Positions 6,870-17,533 are shown, numbered from the stretch's first letter. The stretch is DNA of 64,000 bases from Spirochaetia bacterium (GCA_963675665.1 OY776510.1:96001-160000); one strand, 5' to 3'. Notes: a model not told the origin generated them from the sequence alone. Program-made: numbers and translations.

Positions 6870-7238
6870 TTGGGCGTTCTCGGTGAATTTCTGATAATTT
6901 CCGGCGCAGCTGCGGCGGGTGTGTTGCTTTCCGCAATACCGCAGTTTCCGCTGCCCGGCAGCGTTACAGGCATGCTGATATTGCTCTTTTTAATGCTAAT
7001 CGGGGTGCTTAAACCCGAACGCATAAAGCACGCAGCTGATTTTCTGATCAGGTTTCTGCCTTTATTTTTTATTCCCCTTATTGTTAATCTTCTCAAGGAA
7101 TCTGAACTTCTTGAAACCTACGGCCTGAAACTTTTAATAATAATTATATCGACGACCCTGATAACACTTGCAGCAACAGGGCTTACCGCGCGCCTGCTTC
7201 TTTCAGCTGCATCACGGAGAAAACAGCGTGATGTTTGA
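6870..7238 (+). CDS. CidA/LrgA family membrane protein
   Basis: PLPGSVTGMLILL and LPLFFIP motifs; upstream of LrgB. Confidence 0.85.
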   Translation: MGVLGEFLIISGAAAAGVLLSAIPQFPLPGSVTGMLILLFLMLIGVLKPERIKHAADFLIRFLPLFFIPLIVNLLKESELLETYGLKLLIIIISTTLITLAATGLTARLLLSAASRRKQRDV

Positions 7239-7926
7239 ATCTTTCTGCAGCAATCCTGCTTTCGGACTGGTAATTACCCTTTCGGCCTATGCTGCCGGCC
7301 TCAGACTGTATAAAAAGGCAAGTGTTTCGTTACTGCATCCGGTACTGACTGCTTCAGTTCTGATAATTGCCTTCCTGCTGATATTCGGTGTTGACATTGA
7401 AAGTTATCAAAAAGGCGGAGCTGTAATTTCATTCATGCTGCCCCCGGCAACAGCCGCCCTGGCAGTTCCTCTTTACAGGCAAAGGAAGGTTTTAAAAAAA
7501 CATGCTGTTATCATATTTATTTCAATAAGTGTCGGCGCTGTAGTTTCGATAGTTTCAGCAATACTTTTTTCAAAAGTTTTAGGACTTCCGGAAGAATTGA
7601 TTTTGTCAATGGCTCCCAAATCGATTACAACTCCGATTGCAATTGAGGCGTCCGCCAGGATCGGCGGCCTGCCGTCGATAACCGCCCTTGCTGTCATTTT
7701 TACGGGCATCACCGGGGCAATCCTCGGCCCGCTGGTTCTAAAACTACTGCATATTTCTGATCCGACGGCAAAGGGTCTTGCCATGGGGACAGCCGCTCAT
7801 GCGATCGGAACATCAAGAGCTCTGGAAATGGGAGAAACTGAAGGCGCTCTCGGCAGCCTTTCAATCGGGCTTGCCGGAATAATAACCGTAATGATCATAC
7901 CGCCGATTGTTTTGTTTTTACTTTAA
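7231..7926 (+). CDS. LrgB family membrane protein
   Basis: PATAALAVPLY, PKSITTPIA, GLAMGTAAHAIGT. Confidence 0.9.
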   Translation: MFESFCSNPAFGLVITLSAYAAGLRLYKKASVSLLHPVLTASVLIIAFLLIFGVDIESYQKGGAVISFMLPPATAALAVPLYRQRKVLKKHAVIIFISISVGAVVSIVSAILFSKVLGLPEELILSMAPKSITTPIAIEASARIGGLPSITALAVIFTGITGAILGPLVLKLLHISDPTAKGLAMGTAAHAIGTSRALEMGETEGALGSLSIGLAGIITVMIIPPIVLFLL

Positions 7927-9321: not shown

Positions 9322-9350
9322 AAAAAAACTGCCGCCATTGACGGCGGCAG
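9322..9350 (-). terminator. Intrinsic terminator after the caspase gene
   Basis: Minus strand CTGCCGCCGTCAATGGCGGCAG followed by T7. Confidence 0.8.
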
Positions 9351-9426
9351 TCCAGTTAAAAACTGTTACAGTTTGGGGAACTGTAGGGCGCCTCATCGGC
9401 GCGCCTTTAATATTTTTTAAGGAATA

Positions 9427-11868
9427 CTAAATACGTATTCCCACAAACCATGTTGGATACATATCAAATGAACCGTATTCATTTTTAAAGGAAAGCGGCT
9501 CAATTCTGTCTATAAATGAGGCTGCGGCATCTTCACCAATCTCAATATTATCTCCATCGAAAACTGTATTGATATAACAATCAAAATTCACGCCTACAAA
9601 GACAGACATAAAATCAAACACCTTCATTCCCGCGGAAAGTCTCAACGCCGGATAAAAATCAGTATTGCCCATTATTATACCCTGTATATTTTCATCAGCG
9701 CCGCCCATTCCGGACATATAGGCTTTGGCGTAGATATCAGTATCTAGATAGAGTAAATCTCCGCCGAGCTCAAGCCCTAACCCAATTCCCAATGATGAAG
9801 CATCAGTCCAGTTCTCGGAAAATCCGGCGTGCATGAATGTGTAAACCGTCGACGTTCCAAGCTGATAGCCGAAGTTTATAAAATCATTATCACTGTACCA
9901 GAAGGACATATCGTTAAGGCCGTTCTCGCTGATGTTTATCAGGCCTATCGGAAGCCCGTGCAGGTCCTCGCTTATATTTATCAGCCCGACCTGCAATCCG
10001 TAAACTTCTCCGCCGAAATTCAGCAAACCGAACTGCCCGCCGCGGACGTCTTCTGCAATATTGATAATGCCTGCTGCCTGTACGCCGTCGACATCCTTTG
10101 CCGCATTGAATACACCGGCCGCCTGGACACCGACAACCTTTTCTTCGGAAATATTAAATACTCCCGAGGACTGAATGCCGGTAACCTTTCCTTCCGCAAT
10201 ATTGAAAACGCCGGCACTTTGAATAAAAGCAATATCATGAGCTGAATTCCAGACGCCGGAAAACTGCCCGCCTGTTACATCACCTTCGGCAGCCGCCCAG
10301 ATACCTCCGATCTGAACTCCGCTGACATCACCTTCAGATGTCGTATATACTCCGGCAATCTGGGCGCCCTGAACATTGCCTTGAACCGAGCCGAAGATCC
10401 CGGCGAGCTGAATACCGTCGAGCTTTCCTTCTACATCCGCACCTATTGCACCAAGCTGTATTCCGTTCAAATTCTCTGCTGAAGCAACTATTCCAAAATC
10501 CATGCCGTAGTCGGTTTTCATCGGTTTGTATTCACGGCTCTCAGCCTGTGGTTTCTGTACCCCGGCGGTTTGAGATGCTGAAGGTCCATCAGTATTTCCA
10601 CTTTCTCCCGTGCTCATTCCTGCAGCTTCAAGCGCTCTCTTTTTTGCTTTTTCAGCTATAATATCGAGTTCTGCTGCAGTATCATTAACTGAGCGTTCTT
10701 CGCTTTCGACGGTGGTTTCGAAATCTGCGGCAGGCTTGTCAAGGCTGCGGCCGTCATCCGCTGCGATATGCGTGCCTCCGCGGACGACATTATTTGAACG
10801 CGGAACAGGATAAAATTCATCCTTCATTACCATTATCTTTGAACCGCCGGCAAGCATGAGATCCGCCGAAAGCAGACGATCGCCGTCGTCGAGGATCATT
10901 GAGTAGCGCCCCGGACCGATTGACACGACAAGCGGAGTACCCTCAATTTTCTTGAGTTCAACTACAAGCCTTCCGGCGCTGTCCCTGACAAAAATCCGTC
11001 CCCGAAGATCTTCCTCAAACATTATCTGCTCCGAAACGGACCTTAAATCGGTCAGGACCAGGTCTCCCGTGCCGGCAAGCTGAATATCGTAACTTGGGTG
11101 TTGCGGCCCGGCGAGGGTGTCTTCCGTTCTCGCAAGAGTTTCCGATGAAGCATAGGAGTATGCTTCATTCAGCGAAACCGTACCGTCAAGGGTTGAATCA
11201 GCAGCGCCGCGAAGGGCCGTTACAAAATAGTGGGTAAAAAAGGAAGCGCCGAGATCATCAGATTCCTGGGCCGCCTCATCCTCCGAACTTGAGGTAAGAA
11301 ATGCATGCCCTGAAGCATTCACGGATTCATCCGAAAGAAACGGAGATTTTCTGATTCCGCCTTTCATGCGTGTAAACGCGCCTGAGGAACATGAGTCAAG
11401 AACCGCAATATTCACATCAGCTTCAACCGAGTCAATTGCATCTTTCAACTCTTCATATTTATAAACCGAATCGCCAAGAAGCAACCCCTCTTCATCGGAA
11501 TGCCCTGAGTAATAAAAGAAAAACTCGGAGCGTTTTATATTATCTGATTTTATACTCTTCTGAATCTCTTTTATTGTGTGATTAACCATCATCGGGGAAG
11601 GATCAGTAAGAATAATACTGTCGGTGGGCATTACTCCGCCCAGCTGCTGCATTACATCGGATACCGTTCTGGCGTCGGTAACGGCATAGGAAAGGGTTAC
11701 ACGATCCCTTCCGCCGTAATTGGAACCGACATAGAGACCGTACCTGCGTAATACTGTATCCTGTGCCGAAACGTTGACTGCGGAAAACAGCATAAGGAAT
11801 GCTATAAACATTATAAGTCCGATCTGGATCGCTATATTTCGAAAAGAATTATTCGTCGTCTTTTTCAT
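9427..11868 (-). CDS. Exported caspase-family (peptidase C14) protein with Gly-Gln repeats and a beta-rich C-terminus
   Basis: Signal peptide ending ...VSA|Q; His-Cys dyad YYSGHSD / VLDSCSSG; ~15-aa G.Q..G..N repeats; C-terminus WFVGIRI. Confidence 0.85.
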   Translation of the reverse strand: MKKTTNNSFRNIAIQIGLIMFIAFLMLFSAVNVSAQDTVLRRYGLYVGSNYGGRDRVTLSYAVTDARTVSDVMQQLGGVMPTDSIILTDPSPMMVNHTIKEIQKSIKSDNIKRSEFFFYYSGHSDEEGLLLGDSVYKYEELKDAIDSVEADVNIAVLDSCSSGAFTRMKGGIRKSPFLSDESVNASGHAFLTSSSEDEAAQESDDLGASFFTHYFVTALRGAADSTLDGTVSLNEAYSYASSETLARTEDTLAGPQHPSYDIQLAGTGDLVLTDLRSVSEQIMFEEDLRGRIFVRDSAGRLVVELKKIEGTPLVVSIGPGRYSMILDDGDRLLSADLMLAGGSKIMVMKDEFYPVPRSNNVVRGGTHIAADDGRSLDKPAADFETTVESEERSVNDTAAELDIIAEKAKKRALEAAGMSTGESGNTDGPSASQTAGVQKPQAESREYKPMKTDYGMDFGIVASAENLNGIQLGAIGADVEGKLDGIQLAGIFGSVQGNVQGAQIAGVYTTSEGDVSGVQIGGIWAAAEGDVTGGQFSGVWNSAHDIAFIQSAGVFNIAEGKVTGIQSSGVFNISEEKVVGVQAAGVFNAAKDVDGVQAAGIINIAEDVRGGQFGLLNFGGEVYGLQVGLINISEDLHGLPIGLINISENGLNDMSFWYSDNDFINFGYQLGTSTVYTFMHAGFSENWTDASSLGIGLGLELGGDLLYLDTDIYAKAYMSGMGGADENIQGIIMGNTDFYPALRLSAGMKVFDFMSVFVGVNFDCYINTVFDGDNIEIGEDAAASFIDRIEPLSFKNEYGSFDMYPTWFVGIRI

Positions 11869-12695
11869 CTCTCAGCCCCCTTTTTAAGAAGGATTGTTGT
11901 CTGGTAATAGGTTTCCGGAATATCCAGAAACTCGCGTCTGGAAGAATTACCCTTTGAAGCCAGCTCATAAGCAGCATCAAAGACCTCGTCGATATCAAAA
12001 CTGCTTCCTCCGGTAATGAAGAAAAACCTTTCAAACTCAGGAGCGTCGTCAAGCTCATAAGCATACGGAAGCAGAATAGCTCCGTTATTATCAAGTTCCG
12101 CAGCTATTCCTTTATAAGTCGGAAAATGAAGGGTAACAGTACCGCGTCCGTCAATAGAAAATATCACGCCGTACTTGAAACTTCCTGCAATATATTCAAT
12201 CTGAAGCAGATCTTTTTCATATGCCGTATCACGATTTGCAAGGATTTCCGCCGATTCGCCGGACCTGCGGTAAATTTTCAATGAAGGTTTCAACCCCTTT
12301 ATTCGTTCGGCAGATAACCCCTCCGAGGCTTCAATCATTGCTCCGGTACTTGTTGCAGGGCCGTTATAGAAGCTGATGCCCAAAACCAGAGCAAGAACGG
12401 CTGCAGCCGCTATCACGGAAAAACGGACCGCTTTAAAAGCGTTAAACGGCTTAATTTTATCATTGTCTTCAACATCTGAATTTTCTGTATCCGAATCATC
12501 AAGCCTGGCTTTAATTTTCGCTGCCATTTGCTCAGGTTTATATTTTTTAAGTATTTCCGCATCTGAAATTTCAAGACGCTCCAACTCACGCTTCAGTTCA
12601 TCCTGATCCGGATAACCGGCTTCAAGCGCCCTCTTTTCATCTTCGGTTAATTCACCCAATCTGTATTTCTCAAGTAAAAGATTTCCGGGTTTCAT
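11865..12695 (-). CDS. Putative membrane anti-sigma factor (ActD-like, DUF4384-like C-terminal domain)
   Basis: N-terminal LLEKYRLGEL anti-sigma-like motif, one TM helix, C-terminal IFSIDGRGTVTLHFP...LPYAYELDDAPEFERFF; start at ATG 12695 after GGAGG. Confidence 0.75.
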   Translation of the reverse strand: MKPGNLLLEKYRLGELTEDEKRALEAGYPDQDELKRELERLEISDAEILKKYKPEQMAAKIKARLDDSDTENSDVEDNDKIKPFNAFKAVRFSVIAAAAVLALVLGISFYNGPATSTGAMIEASEGLSAERIKGLKPSLKIYRRSGESAEILANRDTAYEKDLLQIEYIAGSFKYGVIFSIDGRGTVTLHFPTYKGIAAELDNNGAILLPYAYELDDAPEFERFFFITGGSSFDIDEVFDAAYELASKGNSSRREFLDIPETYYQTTILLKKGAER

Positions 12696-12791
12696 TGATT
12701 TATCCTCCTGTTTCTCCGGGGGCGAATGTTCATGAAACAAACTTCTGAAGAAAATTGAATCGAAGGCGCTTGCGCCTGAGAGGCAATTTCC

Positions 12792-13283
12792 TTACTCCCC
12801 CTTAAAGGCCAGTCCCCGCTCTCTGAGGCCTCTCAGCCTCTTACGGACTCCGGAAACCGACATTTCCATCATGTCTGCGGTTTGTTCAAGCGTATAACCG
12901 TCCACATAATGCAGAACAGCCATTGTTCTTGTTGTTTCTTTCTCACTCGCAAACAGCTGTTCAAGAAAATGCCCGGTAAGAACGACTTCTTCATGATCCC
13001 TGAATCCGCTTTCAAACGCTGCGATAGTATCAAGCATCTCGTTTCCGTCGTTCACAAAACGGCTGCGGTTTTTCCGCAGTTCATTCAGACAGATATTGGT
13101 TGCAATAGTGTAAAGCAGGCTGGACGGCGCGCGGTCGTCCAGAACGTCGGCTTTTTGCAGAACCTTCACAAAAACTTCCTGCATGGCATCAAGAGCCTGC
13201 TCTTCATTCTTCAGAAGAGACCGGCAGCGGCGAAGTACCATCGGGCCGTATTTTGTGTAAAACTGTTCAACATCAATCTTCAA
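12792..13283 (-). CDS. ECF RNA polymerase sigma factor
   Basis: Region 2 (ALDAMQEVFVK...LYTIATNICLN) and region 4 (HYVDGYTLEQTA...SVSGVRKRL); probable TTG start at 13283 after GGAAGG. Confidence 0.9.
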   Translation of the reverse strand: MKIDVEQFYTKYGPMVLRRCRSLLKNEEQALDAMQEVFVKVLQKADVLDDRAPSSLLYTIATNICLNELRKNRSRFVNDGNEMLDTIAAFESGFRDHEEVVLTGHFLEQLFASEKETTRTMAVLHYVDGYTLEQTADMMEMSVSGVRKRLRGLRERGLAFKGE

Positions 13284-13316
13284 GAATTCCGTTCCTTCCC
13301 ATTGTCTATATATTGA

Positions 13317-13343
13317 ACACGCTAAATGAGGATAAGTGTTACC
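13317..13343 (-). promoter_or_regulatory. Candidate autoregulatory ECF promoter
   Basis: GGTAAC-N16-CGTGT upstream of the sigma gene, fitting the generic ECF AAC..CGT pattern. Confidence 0.45.
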
Positions 13344-13381
13344 TGATAATAACATTTTTACCAATAATTATGTTGGAAGAC

Positions 13382-13817: not shown

Positions 13818-15737
13818 CTATTTATTCTTGATTTTTTTGAATTTCCCGCTCCTGATTTCTTTCGCCGCAAGCCTTACGCCTGCAGCCTTTACGCCTTTTA
13901 CAAGATAGTCATCCACGGGAAAGCTTTCTTCAAGAACTTTCAGCCTCGGTTTAGGTTTATAATTAAGTTTTACCGCTTCACCATCTTTCGTGGACAATTT
14001 TAGAATGGTACAGCCGTCAGGAACAAGTTCATATGATTTATCCAGGATGAATTTTTCAATCTTGCACCGTTTCAGATGGGCATATCCGGTTTTATCATTC
14101 TTATAGATAATATTGAATATCCTCCCGGCCATTTCATCCTTTTCCGCAAGCCCGCAGAAGAGCATACCCTTATCTACAAAAAGTTTGTCCGGAACATCGG
14201 TAACTGAGTAAACGCCGCTCTTCCTGATAATCAGGATTCTGTCATAGCTGGAAACATTAAACAGGACTTTCCCCGACTTAACCTCATGTCCGAGATACCC
14301 TGTTTGATCATCGTAGCACAAAGTCAGATTCCGCTGGGCGGCTTCACGCACATCAACCTTATCAAAAGCGAGAATCTCCGTCCTGCGTCTCTGCTCAACG
14401 GTTACTCCTTCCAGCAGCTGGTCCACAAATGAAACGGCATAGCTTATAATATTTTTCAGATGATGTCTTACCTGCTTCAACCTGTCGTTAAGCTGCTGCA
14501 TCTCTTCCCGAGCCTTGTTGATATCGTAAAGAGATATCCGGCGTATCGGAATCTTAAGCAGACGTTCAACATCTTCCTCGGTAACTTCCCGTTTTATTTC
14601 ACTCTGAAAGGGTTTAAAACCTTCTATTACGGTATCTATAACACCTTTTCGCGTTTTCATCTGCTCAATTCGTTTGTAGATTCGTTCTTCGATAAATATC
14701 CGTTCAAGAGTCCGGGCATGTATCTTGTCTTTAAGGCCCCTTTCTTCAAGTTTGAGTTCATCCGTTAAGACCTCAACAATCTGTTTCGCATAGTAGCGGA
14801 TAACTTCGGTTACAGTCATCTGGGTAGGAAGACCGTTTTTAATTACAAGAAGATTTACCGAGATTGAAACCTCGCAATCGGTAAAAGCGTATAATGAATC
14901 AACTACCTCATTGGTGTATGCGCCGCGGGCCAGCTTTATTTCAATTTCCGCCTTCTCGGTTGTATAGTCGGTAATTCCGGAAACTTTTATCTTGTTGCGG
15001 CGGGCGGCGTTCTCGATCGAATTCATCAGGGTTTCGGTAGTCGTGCCGAAAGGGATTTCCCTGATTACTATACGTTTGGGATCCTTCGTATCAAGCTTTG
15101 CCCTCACGAGGATTTTGCCGTTTCCGTCTTCATAATCGGATACATCGACCAGACCGCCCGTCGGGAAATCCGGGTAAAGTTGAAACGCCTTGTTATTAAG
15201 GCAGGCCTTTAACGCTTCAAGTACTTCTTCATAGTTGTGCGGAAGTATCTTTGTCGACATTCCTACCGCAATTCCTTCGGCGCCGTGCACAAGCACAACA
15301 GGTATCTTTGAACGGAATGCGACCGGTTCTTTATTCCGCCCGTCATAAGAATCTACATATTCTGTAATATCCGGGTTGTAAAGCACCTTTTTTGCCAGCG
15401 GAAGCGCCCGGCACTCGATATATCTTGATGCTGAAGCCGGATCTCCCGTAAGAATATTACCGAAATTACCCTGCTTCTCTATGAATAAATCCTTATTGGC
15501 CAGTACCACAAGGGCCGAATATATCGAAGCGTCTCCATGAGGATGATATTTCATGCAATGCCCGACTATATTTGCAACTTTATGAAACTTCCCGTCGTCC
15601 ACCTCGAAAAGCGAATGCAGAATCCTTCGCTGGACCGGTTTTAATCCGTCCGCTATATCGGGGATTGCCCTGTCCTTGATAACGTATGAGGCGTACTCAA
15701 GAAAATTGCTGTTGAATACTGTTTTTGCGTATGCCAT
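13818..15737 (-). CDS. parC: DNA topoisomerase IV subunit A
   Basis: DGLKPVQRRIL, YHPHGD, ASASRYIE catalytic Tyr; short C-terminal domain, no GyrA box seen. Confidence 0.9.
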   Translation of the reverse strand: MAYAKTVFNSNFLEYASYVIKDRAIPDIADGLKPVQRRILHSLFEVDDGKFHKVANIVGHCMKYHPHGDASIYSALVVLANKDLFIEKQGNFGNILTGDPASASRYIECRALPLAKKVLYNPDITEYVDSYDGRNKEPVAFRSKIPVVLVHGAEGIAVGMSTKILPHNYEEVLEALKACLNNKAFQLYPDFPTGGLVDVSDYEDGNGKILVRAKLDTKDPKRIVIREIPFGTTTETLMNSIENAARRNKIKVSGITDYTTEKAEIEIKLARGAYTNEVVDSLYAFTDCEVSISVNLLVIKNGLPTQMTVTEVIRYYAKQIVEVLTDELKLEERGLKDKIHARTLERIFIEERIYKRIEQMKTRKGVIDTVIEGFKPFQSEIKREVTEEDVERLLKIPIRRISLYDINKAREEMQQLNDRLKQVRHHLKNIISYAVSFVDQLLEGVTVEQRRRTEILAFDKVDVREAAQRNLTLCYDDQTGYLGHEVKSGKVLFNVSSYDRILIIRKSGVYSVTDVPDKLFVDKGMLFCGLAEKDEMAGRIFNIIYKNDKTGYAHLKRCKIEKFILDKSYELVPDGCTILKLSTKDGEAVKLNYKPKPRLKVLEESFPVDDYLVKGVKAAGVRLAAKEIRSGKFKKIKNK

Positions 15738-17533
15738 CAGATAAGGTTCTCCATAATAAAACTGCGGCGGGCAGGCGTATTCTTACCCATGAAAAATTCC
15801 AGCGTATCGGGGATATCTTTCATTGTCTTAATGTTAACCTTAACCAGCCTCATATCTTCTCCAATAAACTGCCCGAATTCTTTGGGTGAAATCTCTCCAA
15901 GGCCTTTAAAGCGTGTAATCTCCGCTCCTGAAATGGAATCCGAAGCTTCATCCCGCTCCTTGTTGTTATAGCAGTACCGGGTCTCTTTCTTGTTTCTTAC
16001 CCGGAACAATGGTGTTTCAAGGATATATACATGCCCTGCGCTTACAAGTTCTTCAAAAAAACTTAAAAAGAAGGTCATCAGAAGATTCCTGATATGAAAC
16101 CCGTCGTAATCAGCATCTGTGGCGATTATCAGCCTGTTATAGCGCAGGTTCTCAACATCATTCTCAATACCCAGCGCCATCATCAGGTTGAAAAGCTCTT
16201 CATTCTTGTATATTGCAGCTTTTGTTTTACCGAAAACATTGAACGGCTTTCCCCGAAGGCTGAAAACCGCCTGGGAATAAACGTCACGAGCGGAGACAAT
16301 GGAACCCGATGCAGATTGACCCTCGGTAATAAAAATCATTGAGCTGTCGCCTTTTTTATCGCCGAGATGATATTTGCAGTCTTTAAGATTCGGAATTTTC
16401 AGCGCTACTTTCTTGGCGGCTTCGCGGGCTTCTTTCTTTACGGCATTAAGTTCCTTGCGCAGTTTTTCATTGCTGATTATCTTGTTCTCAAGTTTCTTTG
16501 CCGCTTCCTTGTTCTTGTGCAGGAAGTCGACAACGCCTGATTTAACCTCATTTACAAGCCAGCCCCGAATTTCCGTGTTGCCCAGCTTGTTCTTTGTCTG
16601 GCTTTCAAACACAGGGTTCTGAAGCTTGATGGCCACCGCACCGGCAAGTCCGTCGCGCGCATCTACACCTGAATAATTCTTTTTATAAAATTCGTTTACT
16701 CCCTTCAGAAACCCTTCGCGAAATGCGCTCTGATGGGTTCCTCCGTCTGAAGTATACTGGCCGTTAACAAAAGAGAAATAATTTTCCCCGTAGGTATTTG
16801 TATGTGCAAAAGCGAATTCCAGCTTATCACTTCGGTGATAGCCTATATCATAAATAGTAGTCTCGCCGACTTCGGAATCCAGCAGATCAAGCAGACCATT
16901 CTTTGATTCATACTTCTGCTTGTTAAGGTACAGCGTCAAACCGCTGTTCAGGTAGGCGTAGTTCCAGATCCGCTGATCGATAAATTCGAAATTGTAGCTG
17001 TATTCGCCGAAAATCTCCGGATCGGGAACAAACTCAACATAAGTGCCGTCGGCTTCCTTCTCTGTTTTGCCCTGCCGTTTTTTCTTTAAATTCCCACGTT
17101 CAAAAACAGCTTCAAAAAACTTGCCGTCGCGAAACGATACAACACGAAAATATTCCGATAATGCATTAACAGCCTTTGTGCCGACACCGTTCAGGCCGAC
17201 CGAAAACTGAAACACGTCGTCATTGTATTTGGCGCCGGTATTAATAACCGATACGCAGTCAATAACCTTGCCGAGGGGAATGCCGCGCCCGTAGTCACGA
17301 ATCTTGACCCGGCTGCCTTCAACATTTACGATAATCCTGGAACCGTTTCCCATTATGAATTCGTCAATTGAGTTGTCGATTACTTCTTTCAGAAGAACAT
17401 ATATTCCGTCGTCGAGATTTGTTCCGTCTCCGAGCCGGCCGATATACATACCTGTACGCAAACGGATATGCTCAAGCGAGCTTAGAGTCTTTATTTTACT
17501 TTCATCGTATGTTGTGTTCTTAGCTTTTGCCAT
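15737..17533 (-). CDS. parE: DNA topoisomerase IV subunit B
   Basis: EVIDNSIDE, DYGRGIP, GLNGVG, ITEGQSA, TDADYDG, TRFKGLGE. Confidence 0.9.
   Translation of the reverse strand: MAKAKNTTYDESKIKTLSSLEHIRLRTGMYIGRLGDGTNLDDGIYVLLKEVIDNSIDEFIMGNGSRIIVNVEGSRVKIRDYGRGIPLGKVIDCVSVINTGAKYNDDVFQFSVGLNGVGTKAVNALSEYFRVVSFRDGKFFEAVFERGNLKKKRQGKTEKEADGTYVEFVPDPEIFGEYSYNFEFIDQRIWNYAYLNSGLTLYLNKQKYESKNGLLDLLDSEVGETTIYDIGYHRSDKLEFAFAHTNTYGENYFSFVNGQYTSDGGTHQSAFREGFLKGVNEFYKKNYSGVDARDGLAGAVAIKLQNPVFESQTKNKLGNTEIRGWLVNEVKSGVVDFLHKNKEAAKKLENKIISNEKLRKELNAVKKEAREAAKKVALKIPNLKDCKYHLGDKKGDSSMIFITEGQSASGSIVSARDVYSQAVFSLRGKPFNVFGKTKAAIYKNEELFNLMMALGIENDVENLRYNRLIIATDADYDGFHIRNLLMTFFLSFFEELVSAGHVYILETPLFRVRNKKETRYCYNNKERDEASDSISGAEITRFKGLGEISPKEFGQFIGEDMRLVKVNIKTMKDIPDTLEFFMGKNTPARRSFIMENLI

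Follow-up and report, generated by a model that had tools for sequence, protein, structure and literature searches.

Results

We found that a stretch of 64,000 nucleotides from a Spirochaetia bacterium (GCA_963675665.1 OY776510.1:96001-160000), referred to below as the window, carries three adjacent genes which encode a sigma factor of the extracytoplasmic function (ECF) type, a single-pass anti-sigma factor and an exported caspase-family protein. By sequence comparison this triad is a real and widely conserved unit, and it is a widespread, uncharacterised signalling module. The caspase and the anti-sigma factor share an R-x-K-G motif, and we put at roughly 55% the probability that the triad is a self-contained, autoregulated envelope signalling operon in which the caspase serves both as the site-1 protease of the anti-sigma factor and as its own activator. 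That the enzyme cuts both proteins is the simplest reading, because the K-G motifs lie in flexible loops, the genes are nearly always found together and the caspase branch in question prefers a basic residue at P1.

The three minus-strand open reading frames (ORFs) fill positions 9427-13364 of the window (Table 1). An earlier note on this DNA had described three co-oriented genes in which the anti-sigma stop overlaps the caspase start, and this is what is present, the overlap being the ATGA at 11865-11868. The sigma and anti-sigma starts were placed by comparison with 8 relatives, which makes the ATG listed in Table 1 the likely start of the anti-sigma gene. Since the genes overlap or abut and are flanked by a conserved ECF-type promoter and a terminator, they are, as read from the DNA, one minus-strand operon.

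Linkage and distribution of the triad

Relatives of the anti-sigma factor made up 906 protein clusters at E ≤ 1e-3; for the caspase-plus-Ig part, the candidates that were scored yielded 2,480 clusters with E ≤ 1e-5. At least 530 stretches (contigs, with one genome per species) encode an anti-sigma relative, and 80 of these loci were taken for study, originating from Spirochaetota, Acidobacteriota, Aminicenantes, Myxococcota, Fermentibacteria, Bradymonadia and others. A caspase ORF lay directly 3' of the anti-sigma gene in 74 of the 80 loci, mostly with gaps of -4 to +25 nt; 73 of these 74 ORFs were recognised with a hidden Markov model (HMM) E value of 1e-85 or better and the remaining one is cut by the contig end. 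Among the six loci lacking a caspase, one contig ends 61 nt past the anti-sigma gene and the other five are from Archangium/Vitiosangium. The sigma gene was found ≤ 900 nt upstream of the anti-sigma gene in 75/80 loci, and for three of the remaining five loci there is no DNA upstream.

Closer to the window, the triad was found with its gene order unchanged in 8 of 10 other genomes from the window's order, and in a sample of the window's phylum a family member was found in 41 of 301 genomes (31 of 125 genera). The triad is present as a single copy in its own 5.15-Mb genome, as is the caspase gene. Three myxobacterial genomes of the Archangium/Vitiosangium type (G011-G013) contain 6, 8 and 9 caspase paralogues; at ten paralogue loci (L099-L108) an anti-sigma relative was located just upstream in 9 and a sigma gene in 7. 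Multiplication of paralogous triads to 6-9 per genome is easier to reconcile with a signalling module than with a death module. In these genomes the triad has multiplied in the same way as other signalling families. At one of the five Archangium/Vitiosangium loci without a caspase (L070), the anti-sigma gene is followed by genes for a TPR protein, a second ECF sigma factor and a Metal_resist protein in the caspase's place, and the other four likewise have a TPR protein and a second ECF sigma factor after the anti-sigma gene.

Conservation of the shared R-x-K-G motif

The earlier note had drawn attention to an RMKG sequence after the catalytic Cys of the caspase and an RIKG sequence between the transmembrane (TM) helix and the ectodomain of the anti-sigma factor. 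Both are there: RMKG at 11359-11370, within DSCSSGAFTRMKGG (11356-11397), and RIKG at 12294-12305, within ERIKGL (12291-12308). The note further expected the motif to be co-conserved in homologous triads, and the alignment that we ran bears this out. We compared 73 pairs of partner proteins from several phyla, comprising the window and 72 of the 74 caspase loci, namely those with a readable D-x-C-x-[SA]-G; L059, truncated where its contig stops, and L072, which did not match this regular expression, were left out. The P1 Lys was present in 73/73 caspases and 73/73 anti-sigma factors, the P1' Gly in 72/73 of each, and the P3 Arg in 66/73 caspases and 64/73 anti-sigma factors.

Larger alignments of each protein gave a similar picture. 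Among 66 caspase homologues the motif residues were kept as follows: K169 in 66, G170 in 65, G171 in 62 and R167 in 59. For the anti-sigma factor, R131, K133 and G134 were invariant in an alignment of 40 diverse members (35-75% identical), and in 81 sequences Lys was found in 81, Gly in 80 and Arg in 72. The ten alignment columns preceding the anti-sigma motif have entropies of 3.3-3.8 bits, in some members 3-6 inserted residues separate K-G from the strand that opens the folded domain, and the Lys lies a median of 21 residues past the hydrophobic segment (range 7-42). Very divergent myxobacterial paralogues of the anti-sigma factor read N-R-L-K-G, G-R-T-K-G, T-R-P-K-G or H-L-K-G at this position, and those of the caspase read T-R-[TV]-K-G. 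The pattern R.KG occurs at a frequency of 1.74e-4 per residue in ORFs of ≥ 200 aa from the window's genome; in this one genome it would thus be expected by chance with a probability of ~0.005 in one 30-residue stretch and of ~2.5e-5 in both.

Domains, fold and topology of the caspase protein

The caspase protein matches Peptidase_C14 (PF00656) in Pfam at 31.5 bits against a cut-off of 21.4. We agree with the earlier note that it has a signal peptide and an intact His-Cys dyad: a hydrophobic N-terminus is followed by VSA-QD, and a hydrophobic N-terminal segment was found in 50/50 testable homologues, while His123 and Cys160 are intact in the window and invariant in 66/66 homologues. An AlphaFold2 (AF2) model spanning residues 36-365 had a predicted template modelling score of 0.83 and shows the catalytic domain and a second beta-sandwich. 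Its only long stretch with a predicted local distance difference test (pLDDT) value below 50 is formed by residues 162-184, which hold RMKGG and lie between the Cys-bearing strand and the next strand. In executioner caspases the activating cut falls within the loop that follows the catalytic Cys; the R-x-K-G-G of the window's protein presumably occupies the position at which they are cut.

The catalytic domain aligned with caspase-7, caspase-3 and caspase-6 over ~200 residues with Z scores of 19-20 and a root-mean-square deviation (rmsd) of 2.8-2.9 Å, caspase-7 giving a Z score of 20.0 and an rmsd of 2.8 Å over 194 residues. Foldseek returned 319 matches at E ≤ 1e-3, including a metacaspase and MALT1 which match the catalytic domain at E ~2.5e-8, and MALT1 caspase-Ig3 chains align over ~390 columns. 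Among relatives of solved structure, those closest in sequence are fungal metacaspase-1 and Arabidopsis metacaspase-4. Metacaspases and paracaspases cleave after basic residues (Arg or Lys). D65 and D158, which we take to be residues of the S1 pocket, are invariant, and D65 lines up with the Asp in the N-D-A segment of metacaspases. The protein is probably a Lys-specific enzyme of the caspase fold.

Beyond the Ig-like domain, the NCBIfam repeat model LA_2272 (NF047436) matches the protein at 40.6 bits (cut-off 25), and the Atlas clusters nearest to the repeat and C-terminal part are stand-alone LA_2272-type proteins. The last 173 aa contain eight alternating-hydrophobic segments, and 45 of 66 homologues terminate in F, L or I after such an alternating pattern; on account of these segments and C-termini, the C-terminus is probably a small outer-membrane barrel. 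When the triad was compared with the PADLOC defence models, the caspase protein gave a weak match to a generic "caspase" model (E 2.9e-5, residues 45-133), and no match was found for the sigma factor or the anti-sigma factor.

The sigma factor and the anti-sigma factor

The sigma protein matches Sigma70_r2 (55 bits, cut-off 24) and Sigma70_ECF (25.1 bits, cut-off 21.1) in Pfam and TIGR02937 (69.3 bits, cut-off 42.9) in NCBIfam, with Sigma70_r4_2 falling just below its cut-off (24.7 bits against 25.7). It contains only the sigma-2 and sigma-4 regions, is directly followed by an anti-sigma gene and has an AAC/CGT-type promoter, as is characteristic of ECF (group 4) sigma factors.

Residues 22-126 of the anti-sigma factor, a candidate member of the Class I membrane anti-sigma factors, match NCBIfam anti-sigma models far below their cut-offs (29.2 bits against 100). 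In the AF2 model (mean pLDDT 84) four helices lie within residues 5-76, residues 89-110 form a TM helix, residues 138-272 fold as a beta-sandwich, and residues 111-131 form a linker with pLDDT < 50 which runs into the motif at 131-134. A Foldseek search with this model gave no match at E ≤ 1e-3, and VIA-align found only generic Ig-like or macroglobulin-type neighbours of the sandwich (Z 8-9). PF14326 (DUF4384) matched 18 of 40 family members at E ≤ 1, the best with E 1.4e-5, and did not match the window's own anti-sigma factor at E ≤ 1. Because the model matches relatives and not the window's protein, the ectodomain is, by its sequence profile, DUF4384-like at the family level only. No similarity was found by hhalign (probability 1.3%) when this ectodomain was compared with the Ig-like domain of the caspase.

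Proposed mechanism and alternatives

In the mechanism that we favour, the ECF sigma factor would be held at the inner membrane by the single-pass anti-sigma factor, whose N-terminal helical domain would be cytoplasmic and whose periplasmic part is predicted to consist of a flexible linker of ~21 residues ending in R-x-K-G and followed by the Ig-like (DUF4384-like) domain. The caspase-fold protease, carrying an Ig-like domain of its own, would be exported by the Sec route and tied by the repeat stalk to the small C-terminal outer-membrane barrel, such that the catalytic domain, with R-x-K-G-G in the predicted flexible loop after its Cys, would hang into the periplasm. Upon an envelope signal the protease would cut itself after Lys169 and the anti-sigma factor after Lys133. 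The short anti-sigma stub would become a substrate of the site-2 protease RseP, which would free the sigma factor; this would drive its own promoter and probably also that of a small 2TM-domain membrane protein. The genome encodes one RseP (Peptidase_M50) homologue, matched above the cut-off at E 3.9e-51, and as the same model also matches all 14 control genomes this match is not discriminating. With its protease tethered to the outer membrane, the triad would be a trans-envelope system resembling FecIRA.

A more far-reaching version, which we regard as tentative, is that the caspase, anchored in the outer membrane, combines the roles of sensor and site-1 protease in a class of trans-envelope signalling not described before. 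An envelope cue would cause the caspase to cleave R-x-K|G-G in its own activation loop and next the same motif within the linker of the anti-sigma factor, which would amount to a two-step bacterial caspase cascade read out as transcription rather than death, and possibly to a general signalling currency.

Several observations weigh against a caspase that cuts both itself and the anti-sigma factor. Cleavage of either protein is predicted from conserved candidate sites in modelled loops, and the conserved loop after the caspase Cys could serve catalysis and not processing. The periplasmic location of the caspase domain is likewise predicted, from topology, and the domain may instead be displayed on the surface in the manner of an autotransporter. 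The five orphan anti-sigma factors of Archangium/Vitiosangium (L042, L053, L070, L082, L093) keep R-T-K-G without an adjacent caspase. A fusion of anti-sigma factor and caspase was not found among 8000 longer candidates, which is weak evidence. Hydrophobic P2 residues do co-occur in partner proteins in the raw counts (odds ratio 9, Fisher P = 6e-4), yet on a tree built without the motif columns there are only 3 independent contrasts (sign test P = 1), and no covariation between partners at P2 or P3 survives phylogenetic correction; the co-occurrence at P2 is due to shared ancestry. The P3 Arg has been lost in one partner alone in several lineages: in the caspase alone at three Leptospirales-type loci, which have S-x-K-G-G beside R-x-K-G anti-sigma factors, and at one other locus, and in the anti-sigma factor alone at seven loci whose partner caspases keep Arg. 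Loss in both partners is confined to one clade (L057, L058, L090). The caspases of this clade read [FL]-P-K-G-V and the anti-sigma factors [LV]-x-K-G-[IV], a single evolutionary event which is suggestive only. The earlier note's reading of the caspase as a dedicated protease of the anti-sigma factor is partly supported, by the conserved triad, the co-conserved motif and its position in predicted flexible loops; covariation between the motifs is not demonstrable.

Other explanations have to be set against these points. The protease might be only an output of the sigma factor, as an envelope-remodelling or death effector, with the anti-sigma factor sensing by other means through its Ig-like domain and its R-x-K-G being cut by another periplasmic protease or used otherwise. 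This would agree with transcription of the protease gene from what appears to be the sigma factor's own promoter, with the orphan pairs which retain R-T-K-G and with the lack of demonstrated covariation, but it leaves aside that the K-G core with Arg at -2 also sits in the protease's own flexible loop (K169 66/66, G170 65/66, R167 59/66) and that linkage is near-obligate across phyla (74/80 loci). In the genomes which bear the orphans, action in trans by the 6-9 caspase paralogues present there is conceivable, and overall we consider a purely output role unlikely. Control might also run in reverse, with the anti-sigma ectodomain docking on the protease and offering R-x-K-G as a pseudosubstrate or slow substrate, so that the protease would stay latent until the anti-sigma factor is removed in some other way. 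DUF4384 domains are often fused to protease domains, according to the portion of bioRxiv 10.1101/2022.08.17.504292 drawn on here, and both motifs are predicted to lie in flexible loops beside folded Ig-like domains, as docking of this kind would have it. We nevertheless find it improbable, as such strict conservation of a Lys-Gly pair would suit a scissile bond better than an inhibitor loop and a stub with a median length of 21 residues suits site-2 processing.

The likeness of the two motifs could, lastly, be coincidental, one being an element of the caspase active-site loop and the other the first element of the anti-sigma Ig-like domain. The motif has just four residues, some members lack its Arg, and at P2 and P2' the two proteins carry different residues. 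For R.KG to turn up in both of the 30-residue stretches would nonetheless be a rare chance event (~2.5e-5, as estimated in one genome), variable insertions of 3-6 residues part the anti-sigma K-G from the domain, and AF2 leaves the preceding linker unstructured, which together make coincidence a very unlikely explanation. We retain cleavage of both loops by the caspase as the favoured reading.

Promoter, regulon and genomic neighbourhood

The candidate promoter which the earlier note had marked at 13317-13343 coincides with an element, GTAACA-N16-(G/T)TGTT, that is kept in 9/9 upstream regions. In the alignment of these 9 regions GTAACA and TGTT are invariant and their surroundings variable, and in 16 of 66 distant loci, among them ones from Aminicenantes and myxobacteria, a strict regular expression found the motif upstream of the sigma gene. 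By its sequence this is a typical ECF-type autoregulated promoter. The strict motif occurs at 10 sites in the window's genome against ~4 expected, mostly inside ORFs, and conservation backs only the 2TM-domain gene as a regulon member; this gene is likely to be a second regulon member, going by the motif's conservation. The gene lies outside the window (G000:C1:1871885-1872160, minus strand) and encodes a protein of 90-100 aa which matches PF13239 at E 4e-21. GTAACA-N15-17-GTGTT was seen 35-55 nt upstream of the orthologous gene in 7 of 10 relatives (L110, L122, L125, L128, L140, L141, L142), and the copy in the window's genome carries one mismatch. An exact match to the promoter motif, also outside the window (G000:C1:2553870-2553896, minus strand), is located 74 nt upstream of a gene for a predicted lipoprotein or membrane protein of 100 aa.

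Table 1 Features of the triad operon, with positions counted from the first nucleotide of the window and residues numbered within each protein
Feature	Position	Strand	Details
ECF-type promoter	13316..13343	-	-35 GGTAACAC 13343-13336, 14-nt gap, -10 CGTGTT 13321-13316
ECF sigma factor gene	12792..13283	-	163 aa from TTG 13283; longest ORF to 13364
Single-pass anti-sigma gene	11865..12695	-	276 aa from ATG 12695; longest ORF 11865-12740
Anti-sigma TM helix, residues 89-110	12366..12431	-	Hydropathy and AF2 helix
RIKG, anti-sigma juxtamembrane linker, residues 131-134	12294..12305	-	Proposed cleavage after Lys133
Anti-sigma periplasmic Ig-like (DUF4384-like) beta-sandwich	11880..12284	-	AF2, pLDDT mostly > 90
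Exported caspase-family protein gene	9427..11868	-	813 aa
Caspase signal peptide, residues 1-35, ending VSA before QD	11764..11868	-	Hydropathy peak 8-30; cleavage site read by eye
Caspase catalytic domain, ~residues 40-275	11044..11751	-	His123 11500-11502, Cys160 11389-11391
RMKGG, caspase residues 167-171, loop after catalytic Cys	11356..11370	-	Proposed autoprocessing after Lys169
Ig-like beta-sandwich after caspase domain, ~residues 276-365	10774..11043	-	AF2 strands at model residues 236-320, pLDDT ~90
Array of ~18-residue G-x-Q-x-x-G repeats, ~residues 470-650	9919..10461	-	NCBIfam LA_2272 model
Caspase C-terminal domain, ~165 aa	9430..9918	-	Probably a small outer-membrane beta-barrel
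Intrinsic terminator 3' of caspase gene	9326..9353	-	12-bp stem, 7 GC pairs, then T run

Two groups of neighbouring genes were also noted. An LrgA/LrgB pair (PF03788 E 2e-24, PF04172 E 6e-80) lies near the operon on the opposite strand, at window positions 6870-7926 (+), and its linkage with the triad is not kept in distant loci. Directly upstream of the operon, at 13818-17533 (-), are genes for topoisomerase IV/gyrase-like A and B subunits; the C-terminus of the A subunit precedes the triad in several close relatives too, which is ordinary local synteny.

Discussion

The targets and purpose of bacterial caspase homologues have been debated ever since these proteins were catalogued, mostly in terms of programmed cell death. 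The module described here offers a specific candidate substrate, a candidate scissile bond (the invariant Lys|Gly) and a transcriptional read-out. Regulated proteolysis of anti-sigma factors is known; what would be new is that the candidate site-1 protease is a dedicated, separately encoded caspase which appears to be tethered to the outer membrane, and our literature searches turned up no publication in which the neighbouring caspase is proposed, or tested, as the protease that cleaves this anti-sigma family. If our reading is true, there would be a cysteine-protease route to ECF sigma activation beside the DegS, Prc and signal-peptidase routes, the fused DdvA type and the cytoplasmic craspase-Csx30 type discussed below would be joined by a common logic, and the triad would constitute a compact switch, gated by a protease whose recognition motif is short and portable. 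Should the sensor-protease cascade also hold, each myxobacterial genome of the multiplied type would contain 6-9 such circuits, comparable to TonB-dependent cell-surface signalling.

The gene arrangement itself has been tabulated before. In the parts of the study of Asplund-Samuelsson et al. 2012 (PMC3501461) used here, four Myxococcus xanthus metacaspase operons share sigma-70 factors, each being listed in Table S2 as an ECF sigma factor, a hypothetical protein (two of them marked as having a single TM segment) and a metacaspase, which is the same arrangement as in the window. The operon structure is stated to recur in Anaeromyxobacter, Haliangium, Sorangium, Ralstonia and Fibrobacter, and two myxobacterial metacaspase entries in the supplement are named "ActD-like protein". 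Within those parts the linkage is presented in a cell-death context, the middle gene is not recognised as an anti-sigma factor, and the motif, a cleavage model and the topology do not figure. In the portion of the ECF re-classification supplement that was examined, DUF4384 anti-sigma factors are listed under ECF25 only, and a group with the triad context may be missed by that limit.

Two systems join a caspase-fold protease to a sigma factor in other ways. In the sections of PMC11506125 consulted, DdvS/DdvA of M. xanthus resembles the window's triad in combining an ECF sigma factor, a transmembrane anti-sigma factor and a periplasmic caspase-fold (CHAT) protease module, and in a proposed cut between the TM helix and the periplasmic domain ahead of RseP. 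It differs in that TPR-CHAT is fused to the anti-sigma factor and is proposed to act by autoproteolysis in trans within a dimer, cleavage being a proposal there too, whereas the triad has a separate C14 protease, a probable outer-membrane anchor and a shared motif at both proposed sites. In craspase (Type III-E CRISPR), as covered by the part of bioRxiv 10.1101/2022.08.17.504292 cited here, the caspase-fold Csx29 cuts Csx30, a sigma-binding partner (with Csx31 and RpoE), and thereby alters transcription; one group of the C-terminal domains of Csx30 is DUF4384. That system is described as cytoplasmic and RNA-guided with a TPR-CHAT protease, and as it appears in that part it is without a membrane anti-sigma factor or an envelope signal.

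In the sigmaE-RseA-DegS-RseP pathway of E. coli a separate periplasmic site-1 protease leaves a short single-pass anti-sigma stub for RseP, and the window's genome likewise encodes an RseP homologue, with a predicted stub whose median length is 21 residues. DegS is a PDZ serine protease which is anchored in the inner membrane and encoded elsewhere, whereas the triad's candidate is a caspase-fold cysteine protease from the same operon that is probably tethered to the outer membrane. FecI-FecR-FecA likewise brings together a sigma factor, an anti-sigma factor and an outer-membrane protein, and a flow of signal from the outer membrane to an inner-membrane anti-sigma factor is plausible. In contrast to FecIRA, neither a TonB-dependent transducer nor a FecR domain was found for the triad in Pfam and NCBIfam scans, and its outer-membrane partner would itself bear the protease. 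The enzyme, for its part, has the fold, the His-Cys dyad and the flexible loop after the Cys of executioner caspases, metacaspases and MALT1, with an Ig-like domain following as in MALT1 caspase-Ig3. It departs from all of these in being exported, in its probable anchor of repeats and barrel and in a probable specificity for Lys, at sequence identities of 10-22%.

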